IMG/VR virus record: IMGVR_UViG_3300017987_000063
Coordinates: 1-64,000 of that record
Length of the DNA: 64,000 nucleotides
Reading direction: 5' to 3' (one strand)
Source of the DNA: a virus
Positions 6,672 to 55,906 of this stretch are shown here, one piece after another (the first letter of the stretch is position 1; every line of letters starts with the position of its first letter). Made by a program: the position numbers and the translations under genes. The notes beneath the pieces were generated by a model. The model saw nothing but the letters and a program-made list of their open reading frames with translations. It was not told where the DNA came from and searched no databases.

Positions 6672-6881
6672 TTCATTTATCCGTCTTGTTTAACGCCCAT
6701 TGATATATCTGCCACCACATGCTCCGGTGGATCAGGCACCTCCATCTCCACCTCAATCCCCTCGTGGCATATTGAGGCTTTTGCCTTTGTAAACCTTTTA
6801 AAAGCCTCAAGAGCCACGTCTTTAGGTATCCATGTCCTCCCATAAGGAAACCACGCGCCCTCCTCGCCTTTTTCGTTCCGC

Positions 6882-7202
6882 TCAAACCGTAACACCAATG
6901 CTTTTATTATCATTTTTCCTTCCTTTATATCCACAACCCTGCTCTCGCGGGGCACCATACGGATACAGTGAACAGGTCTTGGGACGCTTATCATAAATCA
7001 GGCACGCGGCCTTTTTCTTGCCGTTTGGCGGCCTGTAATGTTTACAAGTCGCTCGATAGTGCTTGCCTTCAGGATGAACCTCGCCTGTCCACACCATAAT
7101 CTCTAACAGGTCTTGCGCCCCTATTTTTCTGGCCTCTTTTTCGGTAACAGGCAGCCAAATATTCTCGCAGCACTTCCCGCATCTTTTACACGCTCTCGGC
7201 AT
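6882..7202 (-). CDS. YkgJ-like CxxCxxCC cysteine-cluster protein
   Basis: CKRCGKCC ... CLIYDKRPKTCSLYP. Confidence 0.75.
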   Translation of the reverse strand: MPRACKRCGKCCENIWLPVTEKEARKIGAQDLLEIMVWTGEVHPEGKHYRATCKHYRPPNGKKKAACLIYDKRPKTCSLYPYGAPREQGCGYKGRKNDNKSIGVTV

Positions 7203-7383
7203 TTTTACTCCCGTAAGCCCGCACCTGCCTACGCAGTTCGCTTAACAGGCTGTCAATCCCATCCCGGTGCGCCTTGTCCAGTATCGGGTCGTCCAGCGGC
7301 TTTTCCTCCGCAAGCTGTCTGGCCTTCTCCAGCCGCTTAATCTGCTCCTGCGTTATCTTTAGTTGGAGGTCGTTCTCAATCAT
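7186..7383 (-). CDS. Small helical hypothetical protein
   Basis: ORF coupled to its neighbours. Confidence 0.55.
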   Translation of the reverse strand: MIENDLQLKITQEQIKRLEKARQLAEEKPLDDPILDKAHRDGIDSLLSELRRQVRAYGSKNAESV

Positions 7384-7871
7384 AGCCTCACCTTCGTCTT
7401 TATTGGAGTACCTGTATGCCCGCGCAGGCTTCCATACTCAGGCACACCTCCTGTCCTTAATGCCTCCAGCAGCTTCTTGCCTATATTTTCCTGCCCCCTC
7501 CTGTCTACACCCGACAAGCCACCTTTTGTCTCCCGAAAAAACTTAAATTGAGTGGTCTCCAGTAAAAACTTGGTGGCTTTGGTTATCTCTTTAATACTCG
7601 TATTTTCCTCCATCGCCGAAAGCCATTGTAACGTCTCGTGCAGGGAAGCGTTTAAAAAATCGTACCACGTAACCCGTAAAAAGACAGTCTCGACATCCCC
7701 ACTAAATTCCAGCTTGAGCATAATAACAAAGTCATACTCCCCCTCCTCCACTACGTCGAGCCTCTCGTAAAGCATGGCTTTTCTGTCGTTTTTCCAGTTT
7801 GCGCCCGGTTCGGCCACCTTTCCTTTAACCAAGAAGGCCGGATTCACTTTAACCTCCATCGGCCACCTCAA
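7380..7871 (-). CDS. Hypothetical protein
   Basis: Coupled ORF; likely start MEVKVNP. Confidence 0.55.
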   Translation of the reverse strand: MRWPMEVKVNPAFLVKGKVAEPGANWKNDRKAMLYERLDVVEEGEYDFVIMLKLEFSGDVETVFLRVTWYDFLNASLHETLQWLSAMEENTSIKEITKATKFLLETTQFKFFRETKGGLSGVDRRGQENIGKKLLEALRTGGVPEYGSLRGHTGTPIKTKVRL

Positions 7872-8340
7872 GCTCGCCCATAAGCATTTTCAGCAGCACC
7901 TCATCGGTTATCCTGCGCACCTTCAGTTTTTTACGAAGGCAGTAATAATCGGGGCACTGGTAGCGAACATCTATAACTTCCAGCCTTACCTTCAAGCCCC
8001 CGACCTTTTTACCGGCTAAGTCCCACAGGCTATGGGGCATCATGTCAATCACGCGCCCATCGGCATACGGCCCCCTGTCAAATATCACCACCGCCGTACC
8101 TTCGCCGTACCTGTCGCTGCGCCTGTCATCGTTTATCACCCGCACGATGGTGCCGTAAGGCAGCGTCTTGTGCGCCGCGATGGGGTCGTCCGCATGTACC
8201 ATAATCCCCGAACCGCCGAACCGCTTGCCGCTCCAGCCGAATCCGTAGTGGGTAGCTATTCCGGTCATGGAATGAGCCATTATCAGGCCGCAAAATATGA
8301 AGGTAATCAGGTTCATAAGCCCCTCCCGCTTATAGCCCAC
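7849..8340 (-). CDS. RlpA-like double-psi beta-barrel lytic transglycosylase with signal peptide
   Basis: AAHKTLPYGTIVRV, DRGPY, GRVIDM; hydrophobic N-terminus. Confidence 0.85.
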   Translation of the reverse strand: MGYKREGLMNLITFIFCGLIMAHSMTGIATHYGFGWSGKRFGGSGIMVHADDPIAAHKTLPYGTIVRVINDDRRSDRYGEGTAVVIFDRGPYADGRVIDMMPHSLWDLAGKKVGGLKVRLEVIDVRYQCPDYYCLRKKLKVRRITDEVLLKMLMGELEVADGG

Positions 8341-8969
8341 GGACTCCAGTGCTGTGCGGGGTCATTATTTTCCACGCTATTATTCATAGCCCGCACCCAT
8401 AAATCTCCACCAAGCCCTCCCACACAAATAAGCTCCCTGCTGTGGGTCTCATAAAGTGGAGACTCAATTTTATCCATCTGAAGGGTCATTTTAATCAACC
8501 TCGTAGAATCGTGGTCAATGTTCATGCTTTTAATCACATAGCCATTTATCGCAGTTGCAACCGCTTCCGGCAGGGATGGAAGGTTAAACATATCCAGAAT
8601 TTCCTTGATAATCTTGGCGTTGGGGTCGTAACCGGGGGCAGGAGGCAGAGCAGCATGGCTCAATGATCTTGCCGAACCGATAAGACTCTTTCGCTTTTCT
8701 CCCCGCTCAACCACCTTTTTTATGGCCTCCCATATCATTCCGGTCGTGTATGGGCCTAACTTGTTTTTATAGGCATCTACCCACTTGATAAAGTACTCTT
8801 CGGAGGCCTGAAACAGAAGCACAGCCTGCATGTATTTGCTCATAATGGTAAAGCCCGCGCCATTATCGATGGCAAATGTTCCCGGCTCCGCGCCTAAAAA
8901 CTCGTCCGCATTCTCCTCGGTAATCTCAATGCAGTCAAGCTGCTCCAGCATATAAGCCAAGCGATCCAT
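8313..8969 (-). CDS. Hypothetical protein
   Basis: 218-aa coupled ORF. Confidence 0.6.
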   Translation of the reverse strand: MDRLAYMLEQLDCIEITEENADEFLGAEPGTFAIDNGAGFTIMSKYMQAVLLFQASEEYFIKWVDAYKNKLGPYTTGMIWEAIKKVVERGEKRKSLIGSARSLSHAALPPAPGYDPNAKIIKEILDMFNLPSLPEAVATAINGYVIKSMNIDHDSTRLIKMTLQMDKIESPLYETHSRELICVGGLGGDLWVRAMNNSVENNDPAQHWSPWAISGRGL

Positions 8970-9577
8970 TACTGATAAATCCAGCCCTTCTCCCGCAGAA
9001 TCTCGTTAATGGATTTGGCCAGTGAGCGTTTTTCGGCTTCCTTCATGTTATAAATCACCGCCAGCCATCGCCCGTACTTCTCGGTCTTATGGCTCCAGAC
9101 GATAACTGTGGAGCCAACTGGAGCGTACTCGTTGACAATCTGGACGCTCTCGTCGAACCGCTCCTTGCCGCGCTCTGGTGTGTTTACGTCCAGCAGCCGG
9201 AACCTGTCGTTTTTCCATATTCCAAATCCCAAGTCCACCGCCAGTTCAACGGTATCGCCGTCAATCCACCGGACAACCTTTGCCTTATAAACATAGGTAT
9301 CCACGCACTCGATTGCGCTCATGGGAACCTCCTCCAGCGGCATTTCAGCCGCCACCGCCACCTGTTTACTGTGGACGTACTTTACCCCGCCCGCTGTAAT
9401 ATATGCGGTCAAGGCGACCAACATCATACATTCAATAAAGGTTAATCTGAACACTCGTTTCCTCCTTTCATTTTGAAATGCCTCGCGGAGCATGCACATT
9501 GGGCAATTTAAAGGGCTTCCATAGTGAAACGACACAAGCCCATTTCGCCACGCCCGCTCATGCTCAGGGCATCTCAC
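8969..9577 (-). CDS. Membrane-anchored thermonuclease (SNase-like)
   Basis: RWIDGDT, RLLDVNTPE, EKYGRWLA after a transmembrane segment. Confidence 0.85.
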   Translation of the reverse strand: MRCPEHERAWRNGLVSFHYGSPLNCPMCMLREAFQNERRKRVFRLTFIECMMLVALTAYITAGGVKYVHSKQVAVAAEMPLEEVPMSAIECVDTYVYKAKVVRWIDGDTVELAVDLGFGIWKNDRFRLLDVNTPERGKERFDESVQIVNEYAPVGSTVIVWSHKTEKYGRWLAVIYNMKEAEKRSLAKSINEILREKGWIYQ

Positions 9578-9729
9578 TTACCACGTCGCTGCCTTCTCTG
9601 GCGACCTGCGCCGCGCCGGTTATTTCTCAGCCAGTCCGCGTCCTCACGGTTGCGGTCTATGTGTGGGATAGTTTCGCGCCGCACGCCTGTCTGTCGCCGT
9701 TTCTTGTCTTCGCTTTTCCGCTCGGTCAT
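9574..9729 (-). CDS. 51-aa Arg-rich peptide with HID-x4-DADWL motif (not in ORF track)
   Basis: MTERKSEDKKRRQTGVRRETIPHIDRNREDADWLRNNRRGAGRQRRQRRGK; AGGAGG RBS, own promoter, GTGA overlap with next gene. Confidence 0.75.
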   Translation of the reverse strand: MTERKSEDKKRRQTGVRRETIPHIDRNREDADWLRNNRRGAGRQRRQRRGK

Positions 9730-9748
9730 ATTTTACCTCCTGACTATT

Positions 9749-9776
9749 ATTATAGCATATAATTTTATAATGTCAA
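9749..9776 (-). promoter_or_regulatory. Strong sigma70-type promoter, repeated family
   Basis: TTGACA-16 bp-TATAAT with TG extension. Related copies at 19953, 21306, 23795, 27580, 34290, 38071, 46202, 48699, 50765, 52527, 53909. Confidence 0.85.
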
Positions 9777-9785
9777 GTCTTTTCT

Positions 9786-10673
9786 TTATTTTAGCCAATC
9801 TGCGTCCGATCTACTCGCGTCAATGTGGACGTTTAGCCGTAAAACGCCCCGCGCCTGCCTGCCCTTTGTTCTTTTATCGAAGTCCGCCACGCGCTGGAGA
9901 TTAACAGTAGCCCTGCCTCGCATAACCGGAACCACCTCCATCTCGCGCCTGAATGAATGTTGAAATACGGAATTAACCGCCGTCCGCTGGGTAAACAGAA
10001 TATCGCTCCTCGGCAGCCGTGTTGATAAAACTACCCCCGGTCGCGTCCTTGACTGGGCAGAGCGGGCAAAGTTTACCGCCGCACTGGTGCTTCCGCTCCA
10101 CGATGATGTGGGATTTACCCCCACAGTGGCTCGCAAAGTACCGCCTGCGGGTATCCTGTTTACTGTGTTGCCCAACGAACGCCCACCGATACCCCTGTAA
10201 AGGGTCATGGCTGGAACGCCCTGCCTGCCTAATATGTATTGGGTAAAAGCGTACTGCCTATCAAGCCCCCTAAATGCGGTTTCCCTGTCTATCCTGCCAT
10301 AACCCGGCGCGACCTGTCTTCGGAAGGTATATCCATCGTTGAAGCGACGGATTTCGCGGGCTCCACTAAACCTGCGCGGCTGTCCCTCCTCATTCCTCCG
10401 CGTCCAGATGGTTCCCCTGTAGCCGAACCGGGTAGCCGCCCACTCGTGCATTACATGGCCGCCTTCGATATTTGACGAGGCCGACCATGATTGCTGGATG
10501 CCATCCACCGCCTGCCCTTCTGGAGTATCCCTGAAGTCCTGCCGCCAGCGATTGGTAATGGCCTCAGCCTGCGCCGCGTCAATCTCTCCGGTGCCGTACT
10601 CATCCTCAAGCCGCTTAATTTCGGCTTCAACGGCTCCACCGCCCGCGCCTATTGCTCCACCTCCGCGTCCCAT
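9786..10673 (-). CDS. MGRGG-leader protein with ADP-ribosyltransferase-like C-terminal domain
   Basis: N-terminus MGRGGGAIGAGGG; R-S-E-type motifs TLYRG, SSWS...AVNFA, EMEV. Confidence 0.7.
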   Translation of the reverse strand: MGRGGGAIGAGGGAVEAEIKRLEDEYGTGEIDAAQAEAITNRWRQDFRDTPEGQAVDGIQQSWSASSNIEGGHVMHEWAATRFGYRGTIWTRRNEEGQPRRFSGAREIRRFNDGYTFRRQVAPGYGRIDRETAFRGLDRQYAFTQYILGRQGVPAMTLYRGIGGRSLGNTVNRIPAGGTLRATVGVNPTSSWSGSTSAAVNFARSAQSRTRPGVVLSTRLPRSDILFTQRTAVNSVFQHSFRREMEVVPVMRGRATVNLQRVADFDKRTKGRQARGVLRLNVHIDASRSDADWLK

Positions 10674-10774
10674 GTCACATTACTCTTTCACTATAGCGCA
10701 GTGTGACACGCAATCACTTGCGCTTCTTCTTGTTTTTAGGTTTTGGCCCTGTACGGGAAGCATAAGTCTGTCTT

Positions 10775-11401
10775 TTAAGCTGGTTGCGCCTCTGCCGCTC
10801 GACTGTCTTTTTCTTCTTTTTTCGGCCCATTGATAAGCTCCTTTATCATAAGCGGGGTCTCCTTGCCGGTCGGGGCAACCGATATAACCCACGTTACGAA
10901 CTCCGGAAGCGGGGTCTTCTTTATGTCTTCCATTGTCTTAAAACAGTAATCCCCGCTCATGCGGTCGTTCTGACATACCCACCATGCTGGCCAGCCTTTA
11001 AAGGGTAACTTACCGCCCCATGCTTGCCTTATTTCCTCCGCCCATTCCGGCGTTATTTCCTCACAGTCCAACATCTCCAGCATAAAGCCCAGTTTCCACT
11101 TATATTCATGGTCTTCAATACCCCATTTTACCCTGTGAAAAACTGCGGAAATAAGGGCATTACCTGTAGCCTCGTCCGATATAGCATCATGAAGCATCTC
11201 TGCGCTTATTTCCATCTGTGTGCATACTGTTACAGGGGCAAGCACGCCGGGCACTTCCCATTTTTTAAAACCGGCGATCACGGCTCTTTGATAACCCGCG
11301 CCAAATAGGTATTCAAACTCCAGCCCCGCCTCCTTGAACTCGGCTTTTATGGTCTGGAGCAGTCTATGCTTTGCGCCCGCCGAACTTGAAAGAGCCGCCA
11401 C
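10775..11401 (-). CDS. Hypothetical protein
   Basis: 208-aa ORF on coding strand. Confidence 0.6.
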   Translation of the reverse strand: MAALSSSAGAKHRLLQTIKAEFKEAGLEFEYLFGAGYQRAVIAGFKKWEVPGVLAPVTVCTQMEISAEMLHDAISDEATGNALISAVFHRVKWGIEDHEYKWKLGFMLEMLDCEEITPEWAEEIRQAWGGKLPFKGWPAWWVCQNDRMSGDYCFKTMEDIKKTPLPEFVTWVISVAPTGKETPLMIKELINGPKKEEKDSRAAEAQPA

Positions 11402-11702
11402 TGACTCCTCCTTTTTCCACCTTTATGCCTGTAGCCGCATGCTGTTGGCCTTTGATACCAATCGCCCGCCGCTTGGCATCTTGTAAGCTCTGCTCCTTCT
11501 CCAGCGATTTCTTGACCTTAAAATCCAAGTGCCCGCGCTTGTGCCGAACGAAGTCCTCAATGCTCATGTGGTACGGGGGAGCGTTGACCTTGATATGCAT
11601 CTCCTCTCCGCACTTAGGACATAACCGTCGCTCGGTGCGTTTACAGAGAACGTCCATCTCCAGATGCTCGCACTTCGGGCACAGATAATCGTTAAGCTGC
11701 AT
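11364..11702 (-). CDS. Zinc-ribbon protein (FmdB-like)
   Basis: DYLCPKCEH ... CPKCG. Confidence 0.7.
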   Translation of the reverse strand: MQLNDYLCPKCEHLEMDVLCKRTERRLCPKCGEEMHIKVNAPPYHMSIEDFVRHKRGHLDFKVKKSLEKEQSLQDAKRRAIGIKGQQHAATGIKVEKGGVSGGSFKFGGRKA

Positions 11703-11710
11703 AAAACCCC

Positions 11711-12334
11711 CTAATCAAAAGTTGGCCCGTAGACACGCCGCAGAGGGCTGCCAGCCGGTAATGCCCTGCCGACATCGCCTCCCATGCCGTAGCCCAGCCC
11801 CGGCCCGCTTCTGGCAATGTTTCCAGCCGTTGTGGTTCGGGGCATCCTACCCCTGTAAAGCACATACCGCGCCCGTGGTGCCCTTGTACCGGGAACTCCA
11901 GTGTTAAACATATCCGCATTTCCGCTTCCCGGTGTTCTGTCAAGGTTGCTCAAGGCTATGCCATTAAACCTCAAGGCCGTGCCCTGCCCTCCGGCTCCAA
12001 ACGTTCCTCCCCCTTGAGATGTAAGCCTTAGCTCTCCGCCCTGTCGTGCCACAACCCCATGCGCCGCAATGTGGATATTGCCTCCAATATCGCCCCTGCT
12101 AGGCTCCCAGTCGTTAAACCGGACAACCTCCATCGCCGTATAACGATTTCCACGCTCTCCTGCCCGCTGCTGGATTAAAGTGTACGGGGTATTGGGCTCC
12201 ATTCGCCGGGTCAACATCTCGGACATCGCAGCGGCATCATACTCGCCAAGCGGAATGACCTCTGCAGATGCCGGTAAAGCTCCAGAGAGACCGGCTATGC
12301 CGCCACCCCCACCTGCTGCTCCGCCTCTGCCCAT
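11711..12334 (-). CDS. MGRGG-leader protein, unknown domain
   Basis: MGRGGAAGGGGG; AGGAG RBS; no Lys or Cys in 207 aa. Confidence 0.8.
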   Translation of the reverse strand: MGRGGAAGGGGGIAGLSGALPASAEVIPLGEYDAAAMSEMLTRRMEPNTPYTLIQQRAGERGNRYTAMEVVRFNDWEPSRGDIGGNIHIAAHGVVARQGGELRLTSQGGGTFGAGGQGTALRFNGIALSNLDRTPGSGNADMFNTGVPGTRAPRARYVLYRGRMPRTTTAGNIARSGPGLGYGMGGDVGRALPAGSPLRRVYGPTFD

Positions 12335-12335
12335 T

Positions 12336-12683
12336 TTACTCCTCCTTCTTGCTCTTGCGCTGTCCCAGTCTTACCCGCGTTATATTCGCTCCTACCCGAT
12401 CCAGTTGGGCAGGCCCGATGCGGATAAACTGGCGGGTCGTAGGATTTGATAACACAACATCCCTGCCCGGCCCGCGAATCGCCCGCGCATTGTTGAATGT
12501 TCGCTCGTTTATCGTAAGGCTGCCCGCGCCCTGATTGCCCCGAACCACCACCTGTCCCTGATTGTTGATAGCCGTGCTGGTCATGTTTCCAATAGGAACC
12601 CCCAATGCCCGCGCCAGATTTTCAGCGGTTCCGGCTCCAGACACCGAGTTTCCCGCTCCTGCTCCACCACCTCCGCGTCCCAT
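12336..12683 (-). CDS. MGRGG-leader protein (115 aa; start corrected to 12683)
   Basis: MGRGGGGAGAG with AAGGAG RBS directly after the upstream stop. Confidence 0.8.
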   Translation of the reverse strand: MGRGGGGAGAGNSVSGAGTAENLARALGVPIGNMTSTAINNQGQVVVRGNQGAGSLTINERTFNNARAIRGPGRDVVLSNPTTRQFIRIGPAQLDRVGANITRVRLGQRKSKKEE

Positions 12684-12684
12684 A

Positions 12685-12948
12685 TTACTTCTCCTTCCTG
12701 AAAGTAGTGATTCCCGCTGTCGTAGCCCTGCGGACATCCGCCCGCCGTGGCTGCGGAAATTTATCTATGATAACCCGATCCTCTATTGACCGGGTATCCT
12801 TGATATTGCTCACGCTGTTCATTAACCTTCTATCTTCCGCCGATATATCAGGGTCGTTTAATATGCCCTCAATATCGGCCTGCAAATCTGACAACGTAGC
12901 TTCTATCGCGGGGCCTCCGCCCCCTGCTCTGCCTCCGCCTCGTCCCAT
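12685..12948 (-). CDS. MGRGG-leader protein (87 aa)
   Basis: MGRGGGRAGGGG; preceded by a promoter. Confidence 0.8.
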   Translation of the reverse strand: MGRGGGRAGGGGPAIEATLSDLQADIEGILNDPDISAEDRRLMNSVSNIKDTRSIEDRVIIDKFPQPRRADVRRATTAGITTFRKEK

Positions 12949-12965
12949 TCCGCCTCTCTTTAACT

Positions 12966-12994
12966 ATTATAATAGCTTTTATTTCACTTGTCAA
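12966..12994 (-). promoter_or_regulatory. Consensus promoter upstream of three MGRGG genes
   Basis: TTGACA-17 bp-TATAAT overlapping the end of the ParB-like gene. Confidence 0.8.
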
Positions 12995-13733
12995 GCGTAG
13001 CCAGCCACTCCCGTGCCGCCGGCTCCAGTAACTCGTGCATTTGCTTGTTATTATCCCTGCAATAATCCGCAAGGTCGTCCATAACGTCCTTGAAAGACGA
13101 GGACATTTGCACCCAGTAATGCGGCCTGCCGTTAAGGGTCAACACGATAAAACTGTGCTGCAGGTCGCTGCCATGCTTCGTCAAGGTCTGCTGTATGACT
13201 CGCCCCAAGTCTTTCACACTCTCCACGCCCTGCGCCGCCTCTCCGAATCTTTTACCGGTCTCGCCGGGGAGCCCGCGCTGGATTTTACCGACAAGACTCT
13301 GAAGGGCCTCCATCTTGCTGAATCCCATAAGCCCTTTTAAAGCCTCATCGGAATACTTCTGCGCCATCTCCTTGTATAAGGCCATAAATTTGGTCTTGTT
13401 TAGCCTGCCCTTGACGATATTAAGCTGCATATTGACGAATTTCTGTCTGTCTTCGTCGAATTCCTTCGGGTCAAGCACCACACAGGGAAGAGTTTCCCAG
13501 CCTAAAGCCCGCGCCGCTTTCCATCTATGCTCCCCTCCAACTATCTGGTACTTGGCGGGCTCCTCAAGCCCCTCTTTCGGAAGCACCTGTATAGGGTCAA
13601 TCATCCCTATCTCATCCAGCTTTTCGGCGAGAATGTTAAACTCCTCCTCGTCCATCTGATTGGGGTTCCATGGAGCGGGCAGAATTTCTCCTATCGGAAT
13701 ATCCTGCACTGTGCCGCGAAGTTTACCTGACAT
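12984..13733 (-). CDS. ParB/Srx N-terminal domain protein
   Basis: PAPWNPNQMD, GMIDPIQV, YQIVGGEHRWKAA. Confidence 0.88.
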   Translation of the reverse strand: MSGKLRGTVQDIPIGEILPAPWNPNQMDEEEFNILAEKLDEIGMIDPIQVLPKEGLEEPAKYQIVGGEHRWKAARALGWETLPCVVLDPKEFDEDRQKFVNMQLNIVKGRLNKTKFMALYKEMAQKYSDEALKGLMGFSKMEALQSLVGKIQRGLPGETGKRFGEAAQGVESVKDLGRVIQQTLTKHGSDLQHSFIVLTLNGRPHYWVQMSSSFKDVMDDLADYCRDNNKQMHELLEPAAREWLATLDK

Positions 13734-13752
13734 CTTTTACTCCTTTCATCCG

Positions 13753-14124
13753 TTAATCGCCGCGCCGCTGCGGGCCTCCACCGGTTGTTCTAGGAGGCAA
13801 GTAACTAAGTCTTCCGCTTATGGTAATCAAACCGCCTCCCGGTGTCCTGTTCACTGTCTGTCGAGTATCGGTAAAGCCTATGCCGGAAGCCCGTAACGAC
13901 CCGCGAATCGCCCTGTTAAGGTCTGTCGCATCGGCTCTTGTAGCTACCTCAAGATTCCCAGTCTGAAAAATTGCCCTATTCCCGACCATGCGCATCGAAT
14001 TTACTGGAAGATTCTGTGTAGACTCTGCCAGTCTGCGGGGGGTTATTGCAAGATTCGGAAATAATGGCTGGCCTTCAATAACTCCACCCGCTCCACCACC
14101 TCCTGCTGTGCCTCCTCTACCCAT
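13753..14124 (-). CDS. MGRGG-leader protein (123 aa)
   Basis: MGRGGTAGGGGAGG; AGGAGG RBS; no Lys or Cys. Confidence 0.8.
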   Translation of the reverse strand: MGRGGTAGGGGAGGVIEGQPLFPNLAITPRRLAESTQNLPVNSMRMVGNRAIFQTGNLEVATRADATDLNRAIRGSLRASGIGFTDTRQTVNRTPGGGLITISGRLSYLPPRTTGGGPQRRGD

Positions 14125-14125
14125 C

Positions 14126-14530
14126 TTATTCCTCCTTCATGACGCGCTTTAAGCTGCCGCCGTATTCCCTGAAACCATCCCGCGCCGCGTTCATCTCCGA
14201 CCGCGCCGCATTAAAATTACCCGCACGAAATTCAGCAGATGCCCGCCCAAATCTGGCCGCGCCTTGCGTATATGCCCTCGGCTGCCACAAACCTCCTATC
14301 GGTGGCCTCTCGTTGCGACGGAGCGTGTTGAGCGTGCGCCGCTCCAGTTGCGCCGCTGTTCTTGCCCGCCTTGCCATTTCCGTATTGTTGCCTGCTGGTA
14401 TCGGCCTTGCCAGTTCCGCAGCCGCGTTCTGAAGCAGGTTCGTTTCGTTTGCTAATTGTTCGTCCCAGTTTCGGGCAGTGAATGTAACTCCACCGCCCGC
14501 TCCACCTCCTGCTGCTCCGCCGCGTCCCAT
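14126..14530 (-). CDS. MGRGG-leader protein (134 aa, helical)
   Basis: MGRGGAAGGGAGGG; AGGAG RBS. Confidence 0.8.
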   Translation of the reverse strand: MGRGGAAGGGAGGGVTFTARNWDEQLANETNLLQNAAAELARPIPAGNNTEMARRARTAAQLERRTLNTLRRNERPPIGGLWQPRAYTQGAARFGRASAEFRAGNFNAARSEMNAARDGFREYGGSLKRVMKEE

Positions 14531-14539
14531 TATTGTCTC

Positions 14540-14692
14540 CTATTTGGCTCTTTTTGCCTGTCTGTGCTCGCGCTTTCGTTCTTCCTTAGCCTGTCGTGCC
14601 TTTTTTCGCTGTTTAGCCCTGTCCTCTTGCCGATACCGGACTCTCGAAGGCTTATTTTTCTTTGAACGCTTACCTTTTTTAGCCTTCCCCAT
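14540..14692 (-). CDS. 50-aa highly basic peptide (not in ORF track)
   Basis: MGKAKKGKRSKKNKPSRVRYRQEDRAKQRKKARQAKEERKREHRQAKRAK; 25 of 50 residues K/R; fills the gap between neighbouring genes. Confidence 0.65.
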   Translation of the reverse strand: MGKAKKGKRSKKNKPSRVRYRQEDRAKQRKKARQAKEERKREHRQAKRAK

Positions 14693-14873
14693 CGGTCTTA
14701 TCCTCTATCGGCCTGCCCTTTATTCTATTCCAAATCGAGCTTGGAATACCGAATATCTTTTTAGCCCTGCTCTTTTCAATCCGGTTTGCCTCTCGAATAT
14801 TCTCGATATACTCCTCGGCGTGCTCCACCACCGCCTTCTCGACATCATCCGTCAACTTATCCGCATACTTCAT
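14679..14873 (-). CDS. Hypothetical protein
   Basis: ATGA overlap with upstream gene. Confidence 0.6.
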   Translation of the reverse strand: MKYADKLTDDVEKAVVEHAEEYIENIREANRIEKSRAKKIFGIPSSIWNRIKGRPIEDKTDGEG

Positions 14874-15418
14874 GGTCTTACTTCCTCCTCGCGGCCATTG
14901 CCCGCGCCGCCATGCTGCATAATCAGGTCTGCCGCCCGCTCGCTGAAGCCGAATCCTACCAGTAAATCCCTATCTCCCTTGCGTTTTTCCGCCGGTACAT
15001 CCCGCACCCGCTGCTTCATGGCTATTATAGCCGCCCGCACGGACTCGGACACTAGTCCGCGATCCCGCAGGTCACCGCCATCCTTGTAAATCCGGCCAAG
15101 TAAGCGGAACTCCCTGCGAAGTGCGGGCTCCTCATCGCCTCCCTGTACCCCATGAATGGCCTCATGAATAGCCGAAGATGCCCACAGAACCGCGCTGTCC
15201 TTTATCGTGTTTGGATTTAAGGCAATAACCTTAGATTTAAGGTAGGAGCTTCCGAACAAACCGGGACGCTTCTCCTCTTCCACGCGCCGCAGGCCGCCCA
15301 TCAGCCTGACATCGCTGCCGTCCAAGAACCTCCAGCCGGATTTCAGGCCGCGATCAATCCGCTCCGTCTCAACCTGCCTGCGCCTGCGCCACTGCATGTA
15401 ATTTTGCTGCGTCGCCAT
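14870..15418 (-). CDS. Putative zincin metallopeptidase (182 aa; start MATQQ)
   Basis: SSAIHEAIHG...DEE (HExxH plus downstream Glu); GGAG RBS before ATG 15418. Confidence 0.6.
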   Translation of the reverse strand: MATQQNYMQWRRRRQVETERIDRGLKSGWRFLDGSDVRLMGGLRRVEEEKRPGLFGSSYLKSKVIALNPNTIKDSAVLWASSAIHEAIHGVQGGDEEPALRREFRLLGRIYKDGGDLRDRGLVSESVRAAIIAMKQRVRDVPAEKRKGDRDLLVGFGFSERAADLIMQHGGAGNGREEEVRP

Positions 15419-16478
15419 ATCGCTCTCCCTTTTCCTCGATAATAGTATCATAAGCCGACTGCAAATACTCGGCATTATCCACAAATAAATCCGGAATAGT
15501 GTTACCATGACTCCAGCCGCGATCCCCGTAACAATGCCGGTGAAATTCCGCATACCGGTAAGCCTGCGCGTCCACAAAAGTTGCGTTCTGGCAAACCTCC
15601 AAGAGCCTCCTCATTCGCTTTGGGCCGCTCGCGCCGAAAAACACCATCCGCACGGGATACCCAACCCTGTCGAAAAACCGCTCCAACAACTTCACCTCGC
15701 GCTCCAGTTGCTTTTCGTTCATGCGCCGGACTGTCTGCATGTTAAGAGAGACCACCGGGACGTTATTACCTCGCACCCAATCCGCGCACCTGTCCACATC
15801 TATCAACCGCACCCAGCCCACGTCCGGCACCACGTTTACCCCGCGCTGCTGCAGTTTTTCAAGGCTTTGGAAGCATCTTTTTAGATTAACAAGGCGGTCA
15901 AGAGGCGGATAATTATCATACATGCTGAAATTTATGGCAAATACGAAGTCAACTCCCTGATACCACGCAATTTTATCGTAAACCGCCTCAATATTCTCCA
16001 GCCACATATCCAGCACCCTGTCCTTCGTAGCAAAGTTCAGGCAAAGTTTGCTCTCCGCCGGTATGTTAAAGCGGGCTTTCAGGTCGCGCTCCCTGCCCCA
16101 TGACTGGTAACGCCAATAAAAAATGTGCTTGAGGGCGATGGTGTAGATAGGTTGATAAAGGTTATATGCGGTTCCATTAAGCTGCCAGATGAAAGGAGGC
16201 CAATCCTGCGGGCTTTCAGCGAAGCTCCACGGAGCCCATCGTTCGGTAAGGCGTAACGTGCCCAAGCCCTCCAGAACCTTATCCTTGTCGGGCCTGTCGC
16301 AGCACACGGCGCGACAATGATCACACTGACCGGTACACCACCGCGCATCGTCTTCAGGCCGCCAGCCGCCGCATATAGGGCGAATTTTACATGATAGGCA
16401 TCGAGCCGTTTTTTCAAGCTCTGCCGTAGAGAAGAAGTGCCTCTTATGCTTAGGCACCTTTGAAATATCAAAGCCCAT
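15369..16478 (-). CDS. DUF4417-like protein with Cys-rich N-terminal metal-binding region
   Basis: NFSMYDNYP...NLKR...LQQRGVNVVPDVGW matches my recollection of the DUF4417 core; N-terminal CxxC-x5-C and CxxxCxxCxxxCC. Confidence 0.65.
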   Translation of the reverse strand: MGFDISKVPKHKRHFFSTAELEKTARCLSCKIRPICGGWRPEDDARWCTGQCDHCRAVCCDRPDKDKVLEGLGTLRLTERWAPWSFAESPQDWPPFIWQLNGTAYNLYQPIYTIALKHIFYWRYQSWGRERDLKARFNIPAESKLCLNFATKDRVLDMWLENIEAVYDKIAWYQGVDFVFAINFSMYDNYPPLDRLVNLKRCFQSLEKLQQRGVNVVPDVGWVRLIDVDRCADWVRGNNVPVVSLNMQTVRRMNEKQLEREVKLLERFFDRVGYPVRMVFFGASGPKRMRRLLEVCQNATFVDAQAYRYAEFHRHCYGDRGWSHGNTIPDLFVDNAEYLQSAYDTIIEEKGERYGDAAKLHAVAQAQAG

Positions 16479-16496
16479 CGGTGTGCCTTAACGGAT

Positions 16497-16525
16497 AATA
16501 TGACATACTTTGCGGGATGTGTCAA
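16497..16525 (-). promoter_or_regulatory. Promoter for the DUF4417 operon
   Basis: TTGACA-17 bp-CATATT with TG extension. Confidence 0.55.
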
Positions 16526-17370: not shown

Positions 17371-17883
17371 TCACTTGCGTCTTATTGTCGGAGGAGGATC
17401 GTACCCCGCATCCCCGCTATTTTCAAGGCTCTGCTCGCCATCGGAAACTCCATCAGCATCTTCGATCACTTGACAATCCGTTACGCTGCCAGACTCTACT
17501 GCATCTCCCATCATGCCATCCTTGTATTGGCTGCCTTCCGGCAGTGGGTTCTCGTGGCCACCGGGCTCGCCCTTTATGTCCAGATATACCTTCGTTCCCC
17601 ACACCCTCAGCTTCTCATTATACTCACGCCGCTCCTGTTCTGTCTGGTCTATTTTTACGGATGCCGGATGCTGTACCGGCATAGACTCCCCTATGGCGGT
17701 CTCTATCGCGTCCAGTATAATGTTCGCGCAAGCCTCACACCACTGCCGCTTAACTCCCGCATAGGCATGAGGCCGCTCGGCTATAATGTAAAGGCGATAC
17801 CACCCTACCTTCAAGGGTCTATCGCCTTTACTAAACTCCGCACCGCACCGCTGGCATCTTAGGTATTCGGGTTCGTATGGCAT
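17371..17883 (-). CDS. Hypothetical Zn-finger protein
   Basis: CQRC ... CEAC. Confidence 0.55.
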   Translation of the reverse strand: MPYEPEYLRCQRCGAEFSKGDRPLKVGWYRLYIIAERPHAYAGVKRQWCEACANIILDAIETAIGESMPVQHPASVKIDQTEQERREYNEKLRVWGTKVYLDIKGEPGGHENPLPEGSQYKDGMMGDAVESGSVTDCQVIEDADGVSDGEQSLENSGDAGYDPPPTIRRK

Positions 17884-19901
17884 TATGCCGCCTTCGCTTT
17901 TTTACCCTTCAGCCCTTCGCCTTTAACCAGTATCCTCTCAAGCTGCCTTATAACCTCGCGGGGCAGGGCTTCAATGTCGTTCAGTAACACCCAGTCAGGG
18001 TAAAACGAGCTAACCGCGCTGCTGTTGATGCCGATGCCGATGGTATGGATACCGCTTTTATTTATCCGCTCAACGACCTCGCGCAGGTGGCTGTTTAACT
18101 TGTTATTGTCGCCTTCGCTTGCAGGGTATCCATCGCTCAACACTATCAAGACCTTCTTGGACTCTTTACGGGCAGCCAGCCTTCGCGCCGCTATCATAAC
18201 GCTCTCGCCATCCGTATTATTCGCCCCTGCTAACAGGAAGGCGAAGTTGCTTTTCTTCTCCCCGAAGGGCTTGGCGATGTAATGGTTGATTCGCTCACTG
18301 TAGCGGTTAAAAGGTTTCAAGGGGCTGTCCGCATCCTTGTAAACGTCGCCCTCCGGATTCTTGGCCTTGTATTCTTTTCTAACTTTGCTTATTTCGCGAT
18401 TCAAGTTCGCGTCGGCATGGCAGTCAAAGCCCGCGACCTCGTGGTCTATGTCCAGCCTTTCAAGGGCGATGCTTAAAGCCGCCGCCGCTTCCCTTGCGGT
18501 CTTTATTTTCCTGCCGCTCATCGAGCCGCTGCAGTCCACCAGAAGGCTCACCGCTACGTCGCGGGTCTCGCCCTGTATCTTCTTCTTAAACACCCTGCTA
18601 CTGGTTCCGGTCGCCACCCTGTAGAGCATCCTGCTGTCCAGCTTGCCGCGCTTCTGCTCAAATAACTCCTTAGCCCTTTCCTTAGCTATCAAAGCCCGCT
18701 CCAGCCTGTGAATCAAGGGGTTCACTACGGGCTTCACGCTGCGCCTTATAGTTTCATCGGTAATCTCCGCGCCGCGTCCCCTGTATTTCATGTTCTCGCT
18801 ATCCATGTCGCTTGCGCTTATTCCATTGAACACCTTGTCATATTTTGTGCTAAAAGGTATGTGGGTATTCTCACCCGCAAACTCGTTTATCCTTTTAACC
18901 TCTTCTTCAATGGCAGGGCTTAAAAGGTCTTCGATGCTCATAACCTTAATGCCGCTCACTCCGCCTTCGATACCACCGCCCGGTGTGGATGTTTCAGAAG
19001 GCTCATCGCCATCTTCGCGGCCCCTATCTTTCGGGCTTCCCTGTGGCTTTCCGCCCTTTCCTTCGCCAGCCTGTCCCTTTTCGCCCTGTCCCTGCTGGTC
19101 ATCGGCCTTGCCGCTGGCTTTTTCGCCGCCTTTTTCGCCCTGTTCGCCGCTGTCGCTGTTTTTATCGTCCTGTCCCTGTCCTTGTCCCTGTCCCTGTCCT
19201 TGCTGGCCGCTATCGGGCTTTCCTTCGCTTTTTCCAGTGCCTTTGCCCTGCTGCCCTTCACCGCCCTGCTGTCCAGCATTCTGCTGCGGGTTGGGGGCTT
19301 TGTTACCCTTCTCGTTCCAGTAAGCTATAATTTCCCGCGCCATCTTTAAAACGTCTCTGGTGCTGGTAAGGTCATGCTTCTTTTTCAGTATTTTAACAAG
19401 CCCTTCGTCCAGATACTTGGCCAGCGGGGTTCCCTTGTAATCGGCGGGGGTCGTAAAGCCATGAATCATTTTAAACACGCCCAAGCCTATCTTGGTGCCC
19501 ATGTCGCCTTTGGCGTTTACCGTAGCCTCAGCCTCCGGCAGGGTAATCTCAATGCTGCGCCTGATATTTTCTTCGCACCCTATCCGGTATTGGCTCATTA
19601 AATGGTCTACCCGCCAATCTTCAATTCCCCGTAAAAGCTCCTCTTCCATCGGGGTCTTGCACTCTTTGCTTATTAGGAAGGTCGGGTCGGTATACTTTAC
19701 ATGGCTGCATTCGTGGTCAATAAAGCCATCCATCAGCTTGGTCAACTTGGCCAGTTCCTCTTTGCCGATATTGGCTACTGGCGGAAGGTACATAATTTTA
19801 TCCACCAGATTGACCATCGGGCAGCCAGCCCTAAAGACTACCTTTAAGCCCATCTCCCTGCTCACTATCTTTGCTATTCTCTCTATGGCTGTCTCTAACA
19901 T
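17883..19901 (-). CDS. CobT-like VWA protein with N-terminal HExxH domain
   Basis: DHECSH; G/Q/K/D low-complexity linker; MIDAS LVDCSGSM, DGE, LSDGYP. Confidence 0.85.
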   Translation of the reverse strand: MLETAIERIAKIVSREMGLKVVFRAGCPMVNLVDKIMYLPPVANIGKEELAKLTKLMDGFIDHECSHVKYTDPTFLISKECKTPMEEELLRGIEDWRVDHLMSQYRIGCEENIRRSIEITLPEAEATVNAKGDMGTKIGLGVFKMIHGFTTPADYKGTPLAKYLDEGLVKILKKKHDLTSTRDVLKMAREIIAYWNEKGNKAPNPQQNAGQQGGEGQQGKGTGKSEGKPDSGQQGQGQGQGQGQDDKNSDSGEQGEKGGEKASGKADDQQGQGEKGQAGEGKGGKPQGSPKDRGREDGDEPSETSTPGGGIEGGVSGIKVMSIEDLLSPAIEEEVKRINEFAGENTHIPFSTKYDKVFNGISASDMDSENMKYRGRGAEITDETIRRSVKPVVNPLIHRLERALIAKERAKELFEQKRGKLDSRMLYRVATGTSSRVFKKKIQGETRDVAVSLLVDCSGSMSGRKIKTAREAAAALSIALERLDIDHEVAGFDCHADANLNREISKVRKEYKAKNPEGDVYKDADSPLKPFNRYSERINHYIAKPFGEKKSNFAFLLAGANNTDGESVMIAARRLAARKESKKVLIVLSDGYPASEGDNNKLNSHLREVVERINKSGIHTIGIGINSSAVSSFYPDWVLLNDIEALPREVIRQLERILVKGEGLKGKKAKAA

Positions 19902-19976
19902 TGTCTTATCCTGTCCTCCTTTCAGGGGGCTTATTCGCCCCCTTTGATTATTATTATAGCATATATTCTTATAATG

Positions 19977-20405
19977 TCAAGCGGTTTCGCCGACTTTTTT
20001 CGATTTTAACGCTTTTTTCAGCCCCTCAAGCTCCTGTTTTACTATTTCGGCCAGCTTAACAGGGGTCTCTTTAAACAGGTTCGCGTCCGGAGGCGGCATC
20101 TCGGCAGCCTTCGGTTCCGCCGGTACATGGGAAGGATCGGTTAAGCTGGCATAAGTCTCTTCCATCGCGGCCTTCCAGTTCTCCATCGTGGCTTCCCATC
20201 CCTTGCTTTTATGGTCGCGGACGATTTTTTTCGCAAGCTCCACCGCGTTCCATAATGTGTTCTTCTGGCCTTTTTTAAACTTGCGTCCCGCCCTGCCGCT
20301 CGCTTCGGGTTCGTGTGCGTACACCGTGAAGCTGGTGGTATCCAGCAGGATAATGCGTTCGCGCCCCTCGTCTTTTTTTATCAATTTCGCTAAAGTAACT
20401 TCCAT
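19977..20405 (-). CDS. Hypothetical protein
   Basis: Conserved GGAGGACAGGAC leader. Confidence 0.65.
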   Translation of the reverse strand: MEVTLAKLIKKDEGRERIILLDTTSFTVYAHEPEASGRAGRKFKKGQKNTLWNAVELAKKIVRDHKSKGWEATMENWKAAMEETYASLTDPSHVPAEPKAAEMPPPDANLFKETPVKLAEIVKQELEGLKKALKSKKVGETA

Positions 20406-20418
20406 CGTCCTGTCCTCC

Positions 20419-21255
20419 TTATGCTGCTTTCCCGCCGATCCACCGCTGAATCACTCCAGCGACGACATCGCGGTCTTCTTTCGAGAGTTTGTTTAAAATG
20501 GTAACCTCAGCCGCGTTTTTCATATCCCCGTATCTCATTATTTTTTCCGCCCACTGTAAGCATTTGCGGGGACTGAAGGTCGTGGTAACCGCATCCTTAA
20601 AAAAGGCGTCCCGTATCTCCGCCGCGATGTTTACTATCATGTGGGCGATGCCGTTCGGGAGTTCGCTCACGCGGCTTTTCAGGATTTTAACCTCAAGCTC
20701 TTTTTCGGGGTAGCCGACTTGGTACACGAAGTCCCATCTGTCTAAAAACGCCTCGTTCATGGCGTTTGTGCCTTGATACAGGGTACGGTCTTCCATGTTA
20801 GCCCCGATGGTGTTGGCTGTGCCGAAGATTCTGAAGCCTTTTTCCCCGTACACGACCTCGCCGTTTTTTTCGCTCAATACCAGCCGTCCGCCCTCTTCCA
20901 GTAAGCCGTGCAGCACCGCCAGTATTTCGGGCTCCGCGAAGTCCACCTCGTCCATAATCAGCCAAGCTCCATTTTTAAGAGCCTGTACCGCTATGCCGTC
21001 AATCCATACGACCTCGCTGCCCTTTACAATCCATTGCCCTATCAGGTCGCTCACCGTGGTGTGGCCGTGCAGGTTCACCCTGCGAACCTCTTGGTTCCTG
21101 TGCGCGGCTATCTGCTCGATGGCCGATGTTTTGCCGACACCGCAGTGCCCTACCAGAAGGACGCGGTCGTTATGGTCAATCGCCTCCTCTAATAGGGGCA
21201 TCCATGTATGGTCTACATACCCCTCAATTTTTTCCGGTATCATATTGCCTTCCAT
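20419..21255 (-). CDS. MoxR/CobS/CbbQ-type AAA+ ATPase
   Basis: GHCGVGKT, LIMDEVD, TANT, NEAFLDRW, SPR. Confidence 0.9.
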   Translation of the reverse strand: MEGNMIPEKIEGYVDHTWMPLLEEAIDHNDRVLLVGHCGVGKTSAIEQIAAHRNQEVRRVNLHGHTTVSDLIGQWIVKGSEVVWIDGIAVQALKNGAWLIMDEVDFAEPEILAVLHGLLEEGGRLVLSEKNGEVVYGEKGFRIFGTANTIGANMEDRTLYQGTNAMNEAFLDRWDFVYQVGYPEKELEVKILKSRVSELPNGIAHMIVNIAAEIRDAFFKDAVTTTFSPRKCLQWAEKIMRYGDMKNAAEVTILNKLSKEDRDVVAGVIQRWIGGKAA

Positions 21256-53983: not shown

Positions 53984-54055
53984 TAGCGGGGGCAGGAGTT
54001 GAACCCACGATAGCCGGAATATGAATCCGGTGCCTTACCACTTGGCTACCCCGCT
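53984..54055 (-). tRNA. tRNA with CAT anticodon (Met or Ile2)
   Basis: Acceptor AGCGGGG/CCCCGCT, anticodon arm CCGGA-TTCATAT-TCCGG, T loop TTCAACT; CCA not encoded. Confidence 0.85.
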
Positions 54056-54130
54056 AAATCAAACGCCCCCGGTGGCGACGAGGGCGTTTGTGAAAGGAGG
54101 ATTCTTCCGGCAGTAAGCCAAGAAAAACCA

Positions 54131-54667
54131 CTAGAATTTAAGTATATCAAATCCGATGGCGAAATGCAAGCCCCGTTCGATAGGCTCATCCGGTGTCCAG
54201 CCGCAGCCCATCGTAAGGGTTAAAATCTCCGGTATAAGCTCCGTGCCTGTACCGATGATAATAACAGTCGCCCCCGCGCTCAACTCCACAAAGTCAGGCG
54301 CAATCACTTGCGCCCATTTTATCCATGTCCTGTTCGCGGGATTCTGGATTTGGGGAAAAAGGCGATACCGCGCTCCAATTGTAGGGGTAATAAGCGAATC
54401 TTCCCCAATAACCACTACGAAACCTCCTGTAATCTGTGGAAAGTACGTTGCCAGTTTCGCGCCGGGGTCATCGGTTATCAGGTTGCCTTCGTCGTCGTAA
54501 CGGAGCGGCGGTGCGCCTGCTTCCTCCGCGATAACCTCCGCCTCACTGTCATCCTGTCCAAACGCGCCATAAGGCAGTAAGAAAAGAATTGAGGTCATTA
54601 GGGTCAGGAGGATGCTTAATCTTTTCCCATGCCCGAAGGTACTGGACAAGTCGGTAAACTTTCGCAA
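54131..54667 (-). CDS. Exported/membrane hypothetical protein
   Basis: Signal-peptide-like segment, C-terminal Phe. Confidence 0.55.
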   Translation of the reverse strand: MRKFTDLSSTFGHGKRLSILLTLMTSILFLLPYGAFGQDDSEAEVIAEEAGAPPLRYDDEGNLITDDPGAKLATYFPQITGGFVVVIGEDSLITPTIGARYRLFPQIQNPANRTWIKWAQVIAPDFVELSAGATVIIIGTGTELIPEILTLTMGCGWTPDEPIERGLHFAIGFDILKF

Positions 54668-54802
54668 AGGCTTTTCTCCTATCTCGCTTCTGGAACCACT
54701 GGACGGCGGCCTGATTTACCAGCAGGGTCGCCGTTTCCAGCTTGGTTCCTTTAAGCCCTCCGGCCTTGCCGAGCATGTAAGCATACTGGGTAAGGCCGAT
54801 AA

Positions 54803-55363: not shown

Positions 55364-55797
55364 TACTCACCTCCCGTATAGGGCAGCGCAAGTATCGCCG
55401 TGCGTATTTTCATCTGCTCTTTTACGGGCAGCTTGGCATAAATGTCCATAAATAGCTGGGCTGTTGGAAGCTCTCCCGGCGATTCCTCGTCACCTTTTTC
55501 AATAGATTGAATCCACCACTCGGCCAGTAATGGAAGGGCCTGTGTAGCAGCGGTTTTAATGCACTCAGCATTTTCATCGTAGTATTTGCACTGCTCCTCT
55601 GTCCACTTGCCGGTCTTGCATTGATTCCTTGCGGCGGTATCAAGGTAAGGCCAGCCGGTCTGGATACCTATAGTCGCCACCTGAAAGCCAATTTCAATGG
55701 CTTGCTTCTGGTCGCACTGGGTCGCGCCGATTGTGACACCGCCTATGCCGAGGCATATTGCCAAGACAACCACGATTCGCATCATTTTCGCTCTCAT
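55363..55797 (-). CDS. Exported protein in the lysis cassette (possible lipoprotein/spanin)
   Basis: Signal peptide followed by Cys; position. Confidence 0.4.
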   Translation of the reverse strand: MRAKMMRIVVVLAICLGIGGVTIGATQCDQKQAIEIGFQVATIGIQTGWPYLDTAARNQCKTGKWTEEQCKYYDENAECIKTAATQALPLLAEWWIQSIEKGDEESPGELPTAQLFMDIYAKLPVKEQMKIRTAILALPYTGGE

Positions 55798-55906
55798 CGG
55801 TTCCTCCTAAGTTTTTAGTGTCCACCCGCAATGCGGGCATATTATAAGCCCCCACGGATCGAAGATAAAATACCTTCCACACTGGGGACAGAGTCGCCAC
55901 CATACA

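Follow-up and report, generated by a model that had tools for sequence, protein, structure and literature searches.

Unrelated phage proteins with a common N-terminal tag are encoded beside a DUF4417-like protein with a predicted transglycosylase-type barrel

The 64,000 nucleotides analysed in this work (hereafter, the window) are the first 64 kb of a single viral contig of 90,971 bp (IMG/VR record IMGVR_UViG_3300017987_000063; CheckV completeness estimate, 63%), whose genes lie nearly all on the minus strand. We found that the window encodes six unrelated proteins that begin with the same short glycine-rich peptide, and that their genes are interleaved with those of a DUF4417-like protein, a protein with an HExxH motif and a ParB_N protein, an arrangement already reported, with agreeing coordinates, in a first-pass annotation of this DNA. 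For the DUF4417-like protein, structure prediction gives a barrel of the tRNA-guanine transglycosylase (TGT) type. We read the window as holding an enzyme-plus-tag system that deploys a variable set of phage effector proteins, because a TGT-fold protein, a ParB-fold NTPase and several proteins with floppy Met-Gly tails occur in it as they do in published systems; this is a tentative reading, which we favour but would not call probable. New here are the TGT-type fold of the DUF4417-like neighbour, the absence of cysteine and paucity of lysine in the tagged proteins, and the phage-specific heads of the tags. The phage is a myovirus, with PHROG matches to a baseplate wedge, sheath, tape measure, head-tail adaptor and portal/terminase, and also to a DNA polymerase, a DnaB-like helicase and methyltransferases.

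The tag and the proteins that carry it

In a six-frame scan, the whole contig contained MGRGG six times, and all six copies were in the window, on the minus strand and at the start of an open reading frame (ORF). The six starts (14530, 14124, 12948, 12683, 12334 and 10673, opening ORFs of 134, 123, 87, 115, 207 and 295 aa, respectively) are confined to 4 kb, and in each of them a Gly/Ala run after the motif extends the leader to about 15 aa. A good AGGAG-type Shine-Dalgarno sequence stands directly upstream of five of the starts, the one at 10673 being weaker (AAAGAG); its presence at 12683 makes this the likely start of the fourth gene, and not the upstream ATG at 12737. The leader codons vary among the copies, Arg being written CGC, AGA or CGA and Gly with all four of its codons, and the DNA of leader plus ribosome-binding site is just 60-71% alike over 58 nt. 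This indicates that the leader is conserved at the peptide level, as the first-pass annotation had proposed, and rules out a DNA repeat or recent gene conversion as the origin of the tag. When the first 20 residues were taken off, no pair of the six bodies gave a blastp match better than E = 0.15, and whole-length paralogy was therefore rejected. The earlier claims of six leaders at gene starts and of unrelated bodies are thus borne out by the scan and the blastp comparison.

A known family could be recognized for one tagged protein, the sixth. This protein of 295 aa (9786..10673, minus strand, as are all six tagged genes), which carries a MGRGGGAIGAGGG tag, scores 27.2 bits against Pfam DRAT (PF07357; cut-off 25) and presents, in order, the motifs LYRG, GSTS and EME, that is, the R, S-T-S and E-x-E of arginine-type ADP-ribosyltransferases (ARTs). 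Judging from these motifs it is an R-S-ExE ART, for which phmmer found no solved relative. The other five gave no family match in Pfam, PHROG or PADLOC. The first of them (134 aa; 14126..14530) starts MGRGGAAGGGAGGG, contains 2 Lys, 19 Arg and no Cys, and has a weak relative (E 0.005) in the related contig L001. The second (123 aa; 13753..14124) starts MGRGGTAGGGGAGG and has no Lys, 15 Arg and no Cys, and the third (87 aa; 12685..12948) starts MGRGGGRAGGGG. The fourth (115 aa; 12336..12683) starts MGRGGGGAGAG, with AAGGAG 7 nt before the ATG at 12683, and its body is related to L010_2905 and L005_12382, whose tag heads differ. The fifth (207 aa; 11711..12334) starts MGRGGAAGGGGG and lacks both Lys and Cys; an Atlas search with it gave noise-level matches only (0.82).

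The tagged bodies are also distinguished by their composition. With expected counts taken from this phage's other proteins, 24 distinct tagged bodies from the related contigs (3,224 residues) contain no Cys against 38.7 expected, 65 Lys (2%) against 209.6 expected, and 408 Arg (12.7%) against 199.9 expected. In the six window bodies there are no Cys (10.2 expected), 13 Lys (55.4 expected) and 114 Arg; eight of the 13 lysines lie within the last few residues, most of them overlapping the ribosome-binding site of the next gene. The untagged genes interleaved with the tagged ones are Lys-rich (8-13%). A GC bias was rejected as the source of the Lys depletion, since GC content at third codon positions (GC3) is 0.44-0.59 in tagged genes versus 0.53-0.69 in their neighbours. 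Because GC3 is not raised while GC content at second positions (GC2) is, we attribute the bias in Lys and Cys to selection on the protein. A separate observation concerns the virion: many virion proteins of this phage (baseplate wedge, sheath, adaptor, and head-region proteins of 565 and 435 aa, located at window 54000-64000 and contig 64001-84000) contain just 1.5-3% Lys and are not Arg-rich, and its replication and other non-structural proteins contain 5-15% Lys. The environment or a lysine-directed host defence are possible causes of the Lys-poor virion proteins.

The DUF4417-like protein was found at 41-43% identity in seven further contigs (L001, L005, L008, L009, L010, L017 and L018). 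They amount to five sequence-distinct relatives, L008, L017 and L018 probably being one phage because a 100% identical tagged protein is common to them, and the close relatives form one clade from few metagenomes. Two to five tagged genes lie near the enzyme gene in each relative, so that the co-occurrence of leader and DUF4417-like gene, supposed in the first-pass annotation, was found in every related contig fetched, that is, in all seven. The tags start MGTSGAGGGG and MGVRGARGGG in L001; MGDARAGGGGGG, MGDARGGGGG, MGDGIGGGAG, MGDGKGAGGG and MGDGKGGGAG in L005; MATGKGKGGG, MASGKGRGGG, MASGKSRAGG and MAGKSRAGGG in L009; MAKARGGAGG and, twice, MAKAVGRAGG in L010; and MGTGG(R/S)(A/S)GGGG in L008, L017 and L018. 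An alignment of 24 tags gives the general form Met, Gly/Ala, a head of 3-5 residues, often with one basic residue, and 5-9 Gly/Ala. The Arg of the leader, once thought invariant, is not so, as heads such as MGDAR, MGDGK, MASGK, MAKAV, MGTGG and MGTS occur in other phages. The tagged bodies of the relatives belong to many families, and orthologous bodies carry the head of their own phage; in one body family the start is MGDARA, MAKARG or MGTGGS, depending on the phage. Since the heads are phage-specific on orthologous bodies, this points to a tag partner that is encoded by each phage and co-adapted with its tags. In L006, L007, L014 and L015, where the enzyme is 33-35% identical, the adjoining gene starts MG or MA followed by small residues (Gly-rich).

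Unrelated cultured phages, in which the genes are ordered quite differently, have the same pairing. A tblastn search with DUF4417 of the Streptococcus phage A25 gave matches in 508 phage records, mostly of Mycobacterium, Streptococcus and Gordonia phages, and seven of these phages were examined. The ORF after DUF4417 begins MGGRGASSG in A25 (at 858; the annotated start is nine codons late) and MGGRGASIGGG in Javan576 (2136-2507; unannotated). In L5 it is an unannotated MGGRG ORF (1081-1419; MGGRGSKGGPGPG) that overlaps the end of gene 1, and in Boohoo (~1100-1985) it runs from MGGRGSGGGGPARG through about 80 Gly-rich residues into a VIP2-like ART, the annotated start being truncated and lacking tag and linker. 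Chaser has a GTG start and GGRGGGGGGP (annotated gene 124), CicholasNage has MGRGRHSGP (annotated gene 108), and MM1 is ambiguous. The statement in the first-pass annotation that the gene after a phage DUF4417 gene starts MGGRG therefore holds in unrelated cultured phages, as MGGRG or MGRGR. Among siphophages the pair stands beside terminase in A25, Javan576 and MM1; in L5, Boohoo and many cluster-A phages it lies at genome positions ~400-1300, as gene 1. ARTs are recurrent as cargo, in the 295-aa protein of the window and in Boohoo.

The DUF4417-like protein and its likeness to known systems

The DUF4417-like protein (369 aa; 15369..16478, minus strand) consists of a region with eight cysteines (residues ~27-60) and a predicted TGT-type (beta/alpha)8 barrel (~84-369). 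Against Pfam DUF4417 (PF14386) it scores 20.8 bits (E 3e-4, residues 168-295), below the gathering cut-off of 28.9. A profile search of 1.84 billion representatives returned 619 relatives of the protein, and 111 of the 150 best match DUF4417 at E <= 0.01 (best, 2.6e-17). We call it DUF4417-like because its own score is below the cut-off and its homology to the family is reached through intermediate sequences. An AlphaFold (AF2) model from an alignment of 150 sequences has a predicted local distance difference test score (pLDDT) of 93.2 and a predicted template modelling score of 0.90; a two-sequence input gave a pLDDT of 41 only. In an exhaustive structural comparison of this model, five TGT-family entries came out on top: archaeosine TGT (ArcTGT; 1iq8, Z 19.4, 276 residues aligned, root-mean-square deviation 3.9), QTRT2 (6fv5, Z 17.0), a bacterial TGT (3unt, Z 16.2), the DNA preQ0 insertase DpdA (7ui4, Z 16.1) and Cap10, complexed with a CD-NTase bearing the 7-deazaguanine (NDG) modification (9ntn, 9ntn_B, Z 13.6). 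Unrelated TIM barrels reached Z <= 12.7. Foldseek concurs with a TGT-type fold, and the viral structure matches that bear names are mostly phage queuine tRNA-ribosyltransferases. On this model the DUF4417-like protein has, at the fold level, a TGT-type barrel, in line with a likeness named in the first-pass annotation, the match to ArcTGT and the rank of the TGT family above other barrels both agreeing with it. The Pfam TGT family (PF01702) has no match anywhere in the contig, and the 150-sequence enzyme profile found no TGT chain at E <= 10, nor anything meaningful, among PDB sequences.

A polar set of D153, S185 and G282 is near-invariant, with D177, D227 and N246 added in closer relatives. 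The conserved polar residues are located at the strand ends of the predicted barrel or close to them, a placement read from the model itself and not from a residue-level superposition on TGT. In TIM barrels, the strand ends form the catalytic face. As for the N-terminal region, residues ~27-60 (window 16299-16400) hold eight conserved cysteines, including C48-x3-C52-x2-C55, a spacing typical of the radical-SAM iron-sulfur site; no radical-SAM enzyme is among the fold matches of the protein, and the canonical DUF4417 protein of A25 is without the eight-cysteine region. Neither the region and enzyme nor the relatives P0010 and P0045 had a blastn or tblastn match in 50,697 phage records. A word-based homologue search returned the query protein only, a scan of genome contigs found no prophage copy, and the P0063 scan gave no match. 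The literature searched (subscription literature was outside its scope) describes no function for DUF4417, nor the tag or its pairing with this family.

Previous studies on other systems offer several points of comparison. In the type IV cyclic oligonucleotide-based antiphage signalling system (CBASS), the CD-NTase begins M(G/S)G(G/S)GG, Met1 is removed, and the QueC-like Cap9 amidates Gly2 with 7-deazaguanine; the capped tail is then positioned for transfer in the base pocket of the TGT-like Cap10 (Wassarman et al., bioRxiv 10.1101/2025.04.06.647259; PDB 9NTN). The window is alike in that a TGT-fold protein, with Cap10 among its fold matches, is encoded beside proteins with flexible, Gly-rich Met-Gly N-termini. 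Such tails give a direct experimental precedent for the exposure of Gly2 by Met removal that the first-pass annotation had assumed, a proposal that needs widening in one respect, since residue 2 is Ala in some relatives. In contrast to type IV CBASS, the window has no QueC-like ligase, CD-NTase or deazaguanine genes, and its enzyme is by sequence of the DUF4417 family and not Cap10/TGT. Moreover, there are two to six different substrates per phage genome versus one in CBASS, the phage tag has a basic residue and a longer Gly run, and the system is encoded by a phage and is not a host defence.

The Dpd system is comparable in another way. Its TGT-like DNA transglycosylase DpdA needs the ParB-fold ATPase DpdB, and the pair exchanges a base in DNA (PMC10164549; PDB 7UI4). 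In the window, too, a TGT-fold enzyme, with DpdA among its fold matches, and a ParB-fold NTPase are found together, and the link between DUF4417 and ParB mentioned in the first-pass annotation is in print, ParB-DUF4417 fusions being common in phages (bioRxiv 10.1101/2025.10.10.680097). However, a DGQQR motif and a C-terminal helical domain set DpdB apart from the window protein, which is a plain ParB_N protein with GxxRxxA. The window phage has no preQ0 pathway, ParB is not always in the module, and tagged protein substrates are not known for Dpd. In the QatABCD system, the nucleobase-pathway enzyme QatC receives a long disordered tail of QatB, the MGTS tip of which is essential (PMC13279940). 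One L001 tag likewise starts MGTS; QatB differs in having a QueC-like and not a TGT-like partner, in being a single substrate, and in belonging to a host defence of unresolved chemistry. A search for a QueC-like ligase (PF06508) in the contig, which is 63% complete, and in three relatives, of which one is 100% complete, gave no match. Lacking QueC, QueD, FolE and a canonical TGT, the window module belongs to neither the NDG nor the Dpd system, and it may, by analogy, work like them, in which case the deazaguanine precursor may be supplied by the host.

A different kind of precedent is found in phage T4, whose internal proteins and Alt share a capsid-targeting sequence that is not Gly-rich and is cut by a serine prohead protease. 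As in T4, several unrelated proteins of the window phage, including an ART, have a common short N-terminal peptide. T4 differs in having no TGT-like enzyme, and packaging, which is shown in T4, would be a conjecture for the window proteins. No prohead protease was identified among the phage proteins scanned. The packaging of Alt has been summarised, and delivery together with the DNA is frequent among phage ARTs (PMC9503650). MuF-fused polymorphic toxins, in the account cited by the same paper, carry swappable effector domains, often ARTs, on a constant element that is delivered in the virion; going by that account, the constant part is there a whole fused head protein, and here a 15-residue tag with a separate enzyme.

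Other genes of the module

The ParB-fold protein (249 aa; 12984..13733, minus strand) matches Pfam ParB_N (PF02195) with 48.7 bits (cut-off 26.3) and phrog_26387 at E 1.2e-51, and its GxxRxxA NTP-binding box is intact (GEHRWKA). Its gene is 1.6 kb from the barrel gene, and ParB is adjacent to the enzyme also in L001, L006, L007 and L015. The zincin-like HExxH (HEAIH) protein (182 aa; 14870..15418, minus strand) is kept beside the enzyme in this phage clade. An alignment of six orthologues shows H85, E86, H89, E96 and E103 to be invariant; no Pfam, PHROG or PDB family was matched, and the nearest named Atlas cluster, M78/IrrE-like at only 0.88, is a weak lead. Of the module as first described, then, the DUF4417-like enzyme and the leader recurred in every relative fetched, and ParB and the HExxH protein were not always present.

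The HExxH gene is followed by that of a small acidic protein (64 aa; 14679..14873, minus strand), which has an EK...IEK...FG motif common to five aligned orthologues and no family match. A zinc-ribbon protein (112 aa; 11364..11702, minus strand; phrog_1076 at E 5.5e-06 and a weak Zn_ribbon_8 match) keeps its position in the module, with counterparts in L005 and L009. In this clade the HExxH, ~60-aa acidic and zinc-ribbon proteins travel with the module. An untagged, Lys-rich protein of 208 aa (10775..11401, minus strand) had no family match in Pfam, PHROG or PADLOC; proteins of ~208 aa stand at the same position in L005 and L009, and their homology was rejected, as they are just 19-21% alike. 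PADLOC found nothing among the module proteins except methyltransferase-like matches on the ParB domain. The acidic 64-aa gene is separated from the first tagged gene by an ORF of 50 aa (14540-14692, minus strand; starts MGKAKKGKRSKK) that is extremely rich in Lys and Arg, and a similar small basic ORF occurs amid the tagged genes of L009 (3631-3759).

At the other end of the module, a near-consensus promoter-like sequence, TTGACA-16-TATAAT, was read by eye at 9749..9776 (minus strand), between the stop of the ART gene (9786) and an ORF of 51 aa (9574-9729) that lies beyond the ART gene and has its own AGGAGG site. From its sequence, this site probably starts a new transcription unit and so marks where the module ends downstream. 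The C-terminus of the ART (HID...DADWLK; 9786-9830) is echoed in the 51-aa ORF (HID...DADWLR; 9620-9680), with a 24-nt DNA match, which may be the scar of a cassette exchange. Upstream of the module, a CobT/vWA-like protein of 672 aa and a MoxR/CbbQ-type AAA ATPase are encoded at 17883-21255, and the vWA-like protein has the same position in L005 and L008. In L001, the region directly upstream of the enzyme (6700-10001) encodes proteins with the motifs of radical-SAM enzymes, LmbE/PIG-L-type deacetylases and glycosyltransferases. These motifs hint at a sugar or base modification pathway, one that is not in the window.

Proposed mechanism, rival explanations and significance

We hypothesize that the substrates of the enzyme-plus-tag system are the six unrelated basic proteins, one of them an ART, each with a tag of ~15 residues made up of Met1, a head of 3-5 residues that all tagged proteins of a given phage have in common, and a flexible stretch of Gly/Ala. 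Met1 would be removed, residue 2 being Gly (Ala in some relatives), and the tag would be a handle for the neighbouring DUF4417-family barrel protein, with the floppy tail threading into the barrel pocket by its free alpha-amine end, as the CD-NTase tail does in Cap10. The ParB-fold NTPase may assist the enzyme, as DpdB assists DpdA. The chemistry of the enzyme would couple the protein to a base or a nucleic acid, most plausibly phage DNA, and the effectors would then travel with the genome into the host. The HExxH protein is a candidate for trimming or releasing them later. The loss of Lys and Cys, both nucleophilic side chains, fits a chemistry meant for a single alpha-amine, and an ART cargo fits delivery into the host. 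A more specific version is that DUF4417 enzymes are protein-nucleic acid transglycosylases that use the tag alpha-amine, directly or base-capped, and plant effectors covalently on DNA or RNA by base exchange, so that these ride in on the phage genome; this version we regard as unlikely.

Several observations weigh against the enzyme-plus-tag reading. The TGT likeness of the model is at the fold level only, the 150-sequence profile having found no solved TGT. QueD, FolE and the TGT Pfam family are missing from the contig and from three relatives, one of them 100% complete, as is the QueC-like ligase, so that an NDG-type reaction is not encoded. ParB is absent from the module in L005, L009 and L010, and in L005 two tagged genes are 6-7 kb away from the enzyme. 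Part of the synteny could be due to descent, since most close relatives are from one phage clade. The Streptococcus phage cargos are Lys-rich, and Lys depletion is therefore a feature of this clade and not of the whole system. Finally, it would be difficult to package a folded protein that is attached to DNA.

The main rival explanation is that the tag is a non-covalent packaging signal of the T4 kind, which loads effectors into the procapsid or tail, with the DUF4417-like protein as loader or chaperone and the HExxH protein removing the tag. ARTs are a class of cargo often packaged in the head, especially in myoviruses (PMC9503650), and this phage has a sheath and baseplate. The siphophage pair beside terminase, or its place as gene 1 near ~400-1300 in L5, Boohoo and many cluster-A phages, would also suit such loading, as would the passage in unfolded form for which Cys-free basic proteins are apt. 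The low Lys content of many virion proteins could be counted here as well, but those proteins are low in Lys and Arg together, while the tagged proteins are Arg-rich. Besides, the module is ~40 kb from the head genes, amid genes of DNA metabolism, and polar residues that hardly vary across 150 diverse sequences, placed at or close to where the strands of a TGT-type barrel end, look like those of an enzyme and not of an adaptor. An HExxH protein is also not of the type of the known prohead proteases, none of which is, to our knowledge, an HExxH enzyme. We thus consider loading of this kind a serious possibility, if a rather improbable one.

It could also be that the tags are an anti-defence mimic of host acceptor tails (MGGS of CD-NTase, MGTS of QatB) that jams or hijacks host QueC-like enzymes, the phage TGT-like protein binding or diverting the capped tails. 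The resemblance of the tails to published acceptor motifs, with an L001 start of MGTS, the presence of Cap10 among the fold matches and the fact that the phage encodes no ligase of its own speak for such mimicry. It is nevertheless very unlikely, because a decoy does not need six bodies that include, from its sequence, an active-looking ART, because phage-specific heads point to a partner encoded by the phage and not by the host, and because the pairing is found in phages of hosts as different as Mycobacterium and Streptococcus. That the shared start has no common function at all, being a G-rich, Shine-Dalgarno-like feature of translation or mRNA or a low-complexity drift, with the linkage to DUF4417 an inherited gene order, seems to us hardly credible. 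GGN-rich starts do contain Shine-Dalgarno-like GGAGG strings, and the close relatives are one clade with a conserved gene order. However, the pairing is seen again in unrelated cultured phages whose gene orders are quite different, position 2 is occupied by Gly or Ala in every case, the tag head on orthologous bodies changes from phage to phage, and an mRNA feature cannot account for a depletion of Lys and Cys over the full length of the proteins.

At least 508 sequenced phage records, those of the laboratory phages L5, D29 and A25 among them, contain DUF4417, and its tagged partner was unannotated or annotated with too late a start in four of the seven cultured phages (A25, Javan576, L5 and Boohoo). 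The chemistry of TGT-like proteins at protein N-termini is a problem opened in 2025 by the discovery of deazaguanylation (bioRxiv 10.1101/2025.04.06.647259), and the enzyme-plus-tag system, if true, would provide genetically tractable models for it, for instance by bacteriophage recombineering of electroporated DNA (BRED) in L5 or D29, together with a 15-residue address label usable for engineering. If the covalent planting of effectors on DNA or RNA were true, it would be a new kind of protein-DNA linkage and would suggest that the transfer step of Cap10-type systems has a nucleic acid as its target. The window is an unusually rich case, in that a single block combines six cargos with a ParB NTPase and a peptidase that is a candidate for their release, and the loss of Lys and Cys from its cargos hints at an amine-directed chemistry. 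Should the enzyme-plus-tag reading hold, it would account for the deployment of swappable effectors, ADP-ribosyltransferases for example, by many phages.

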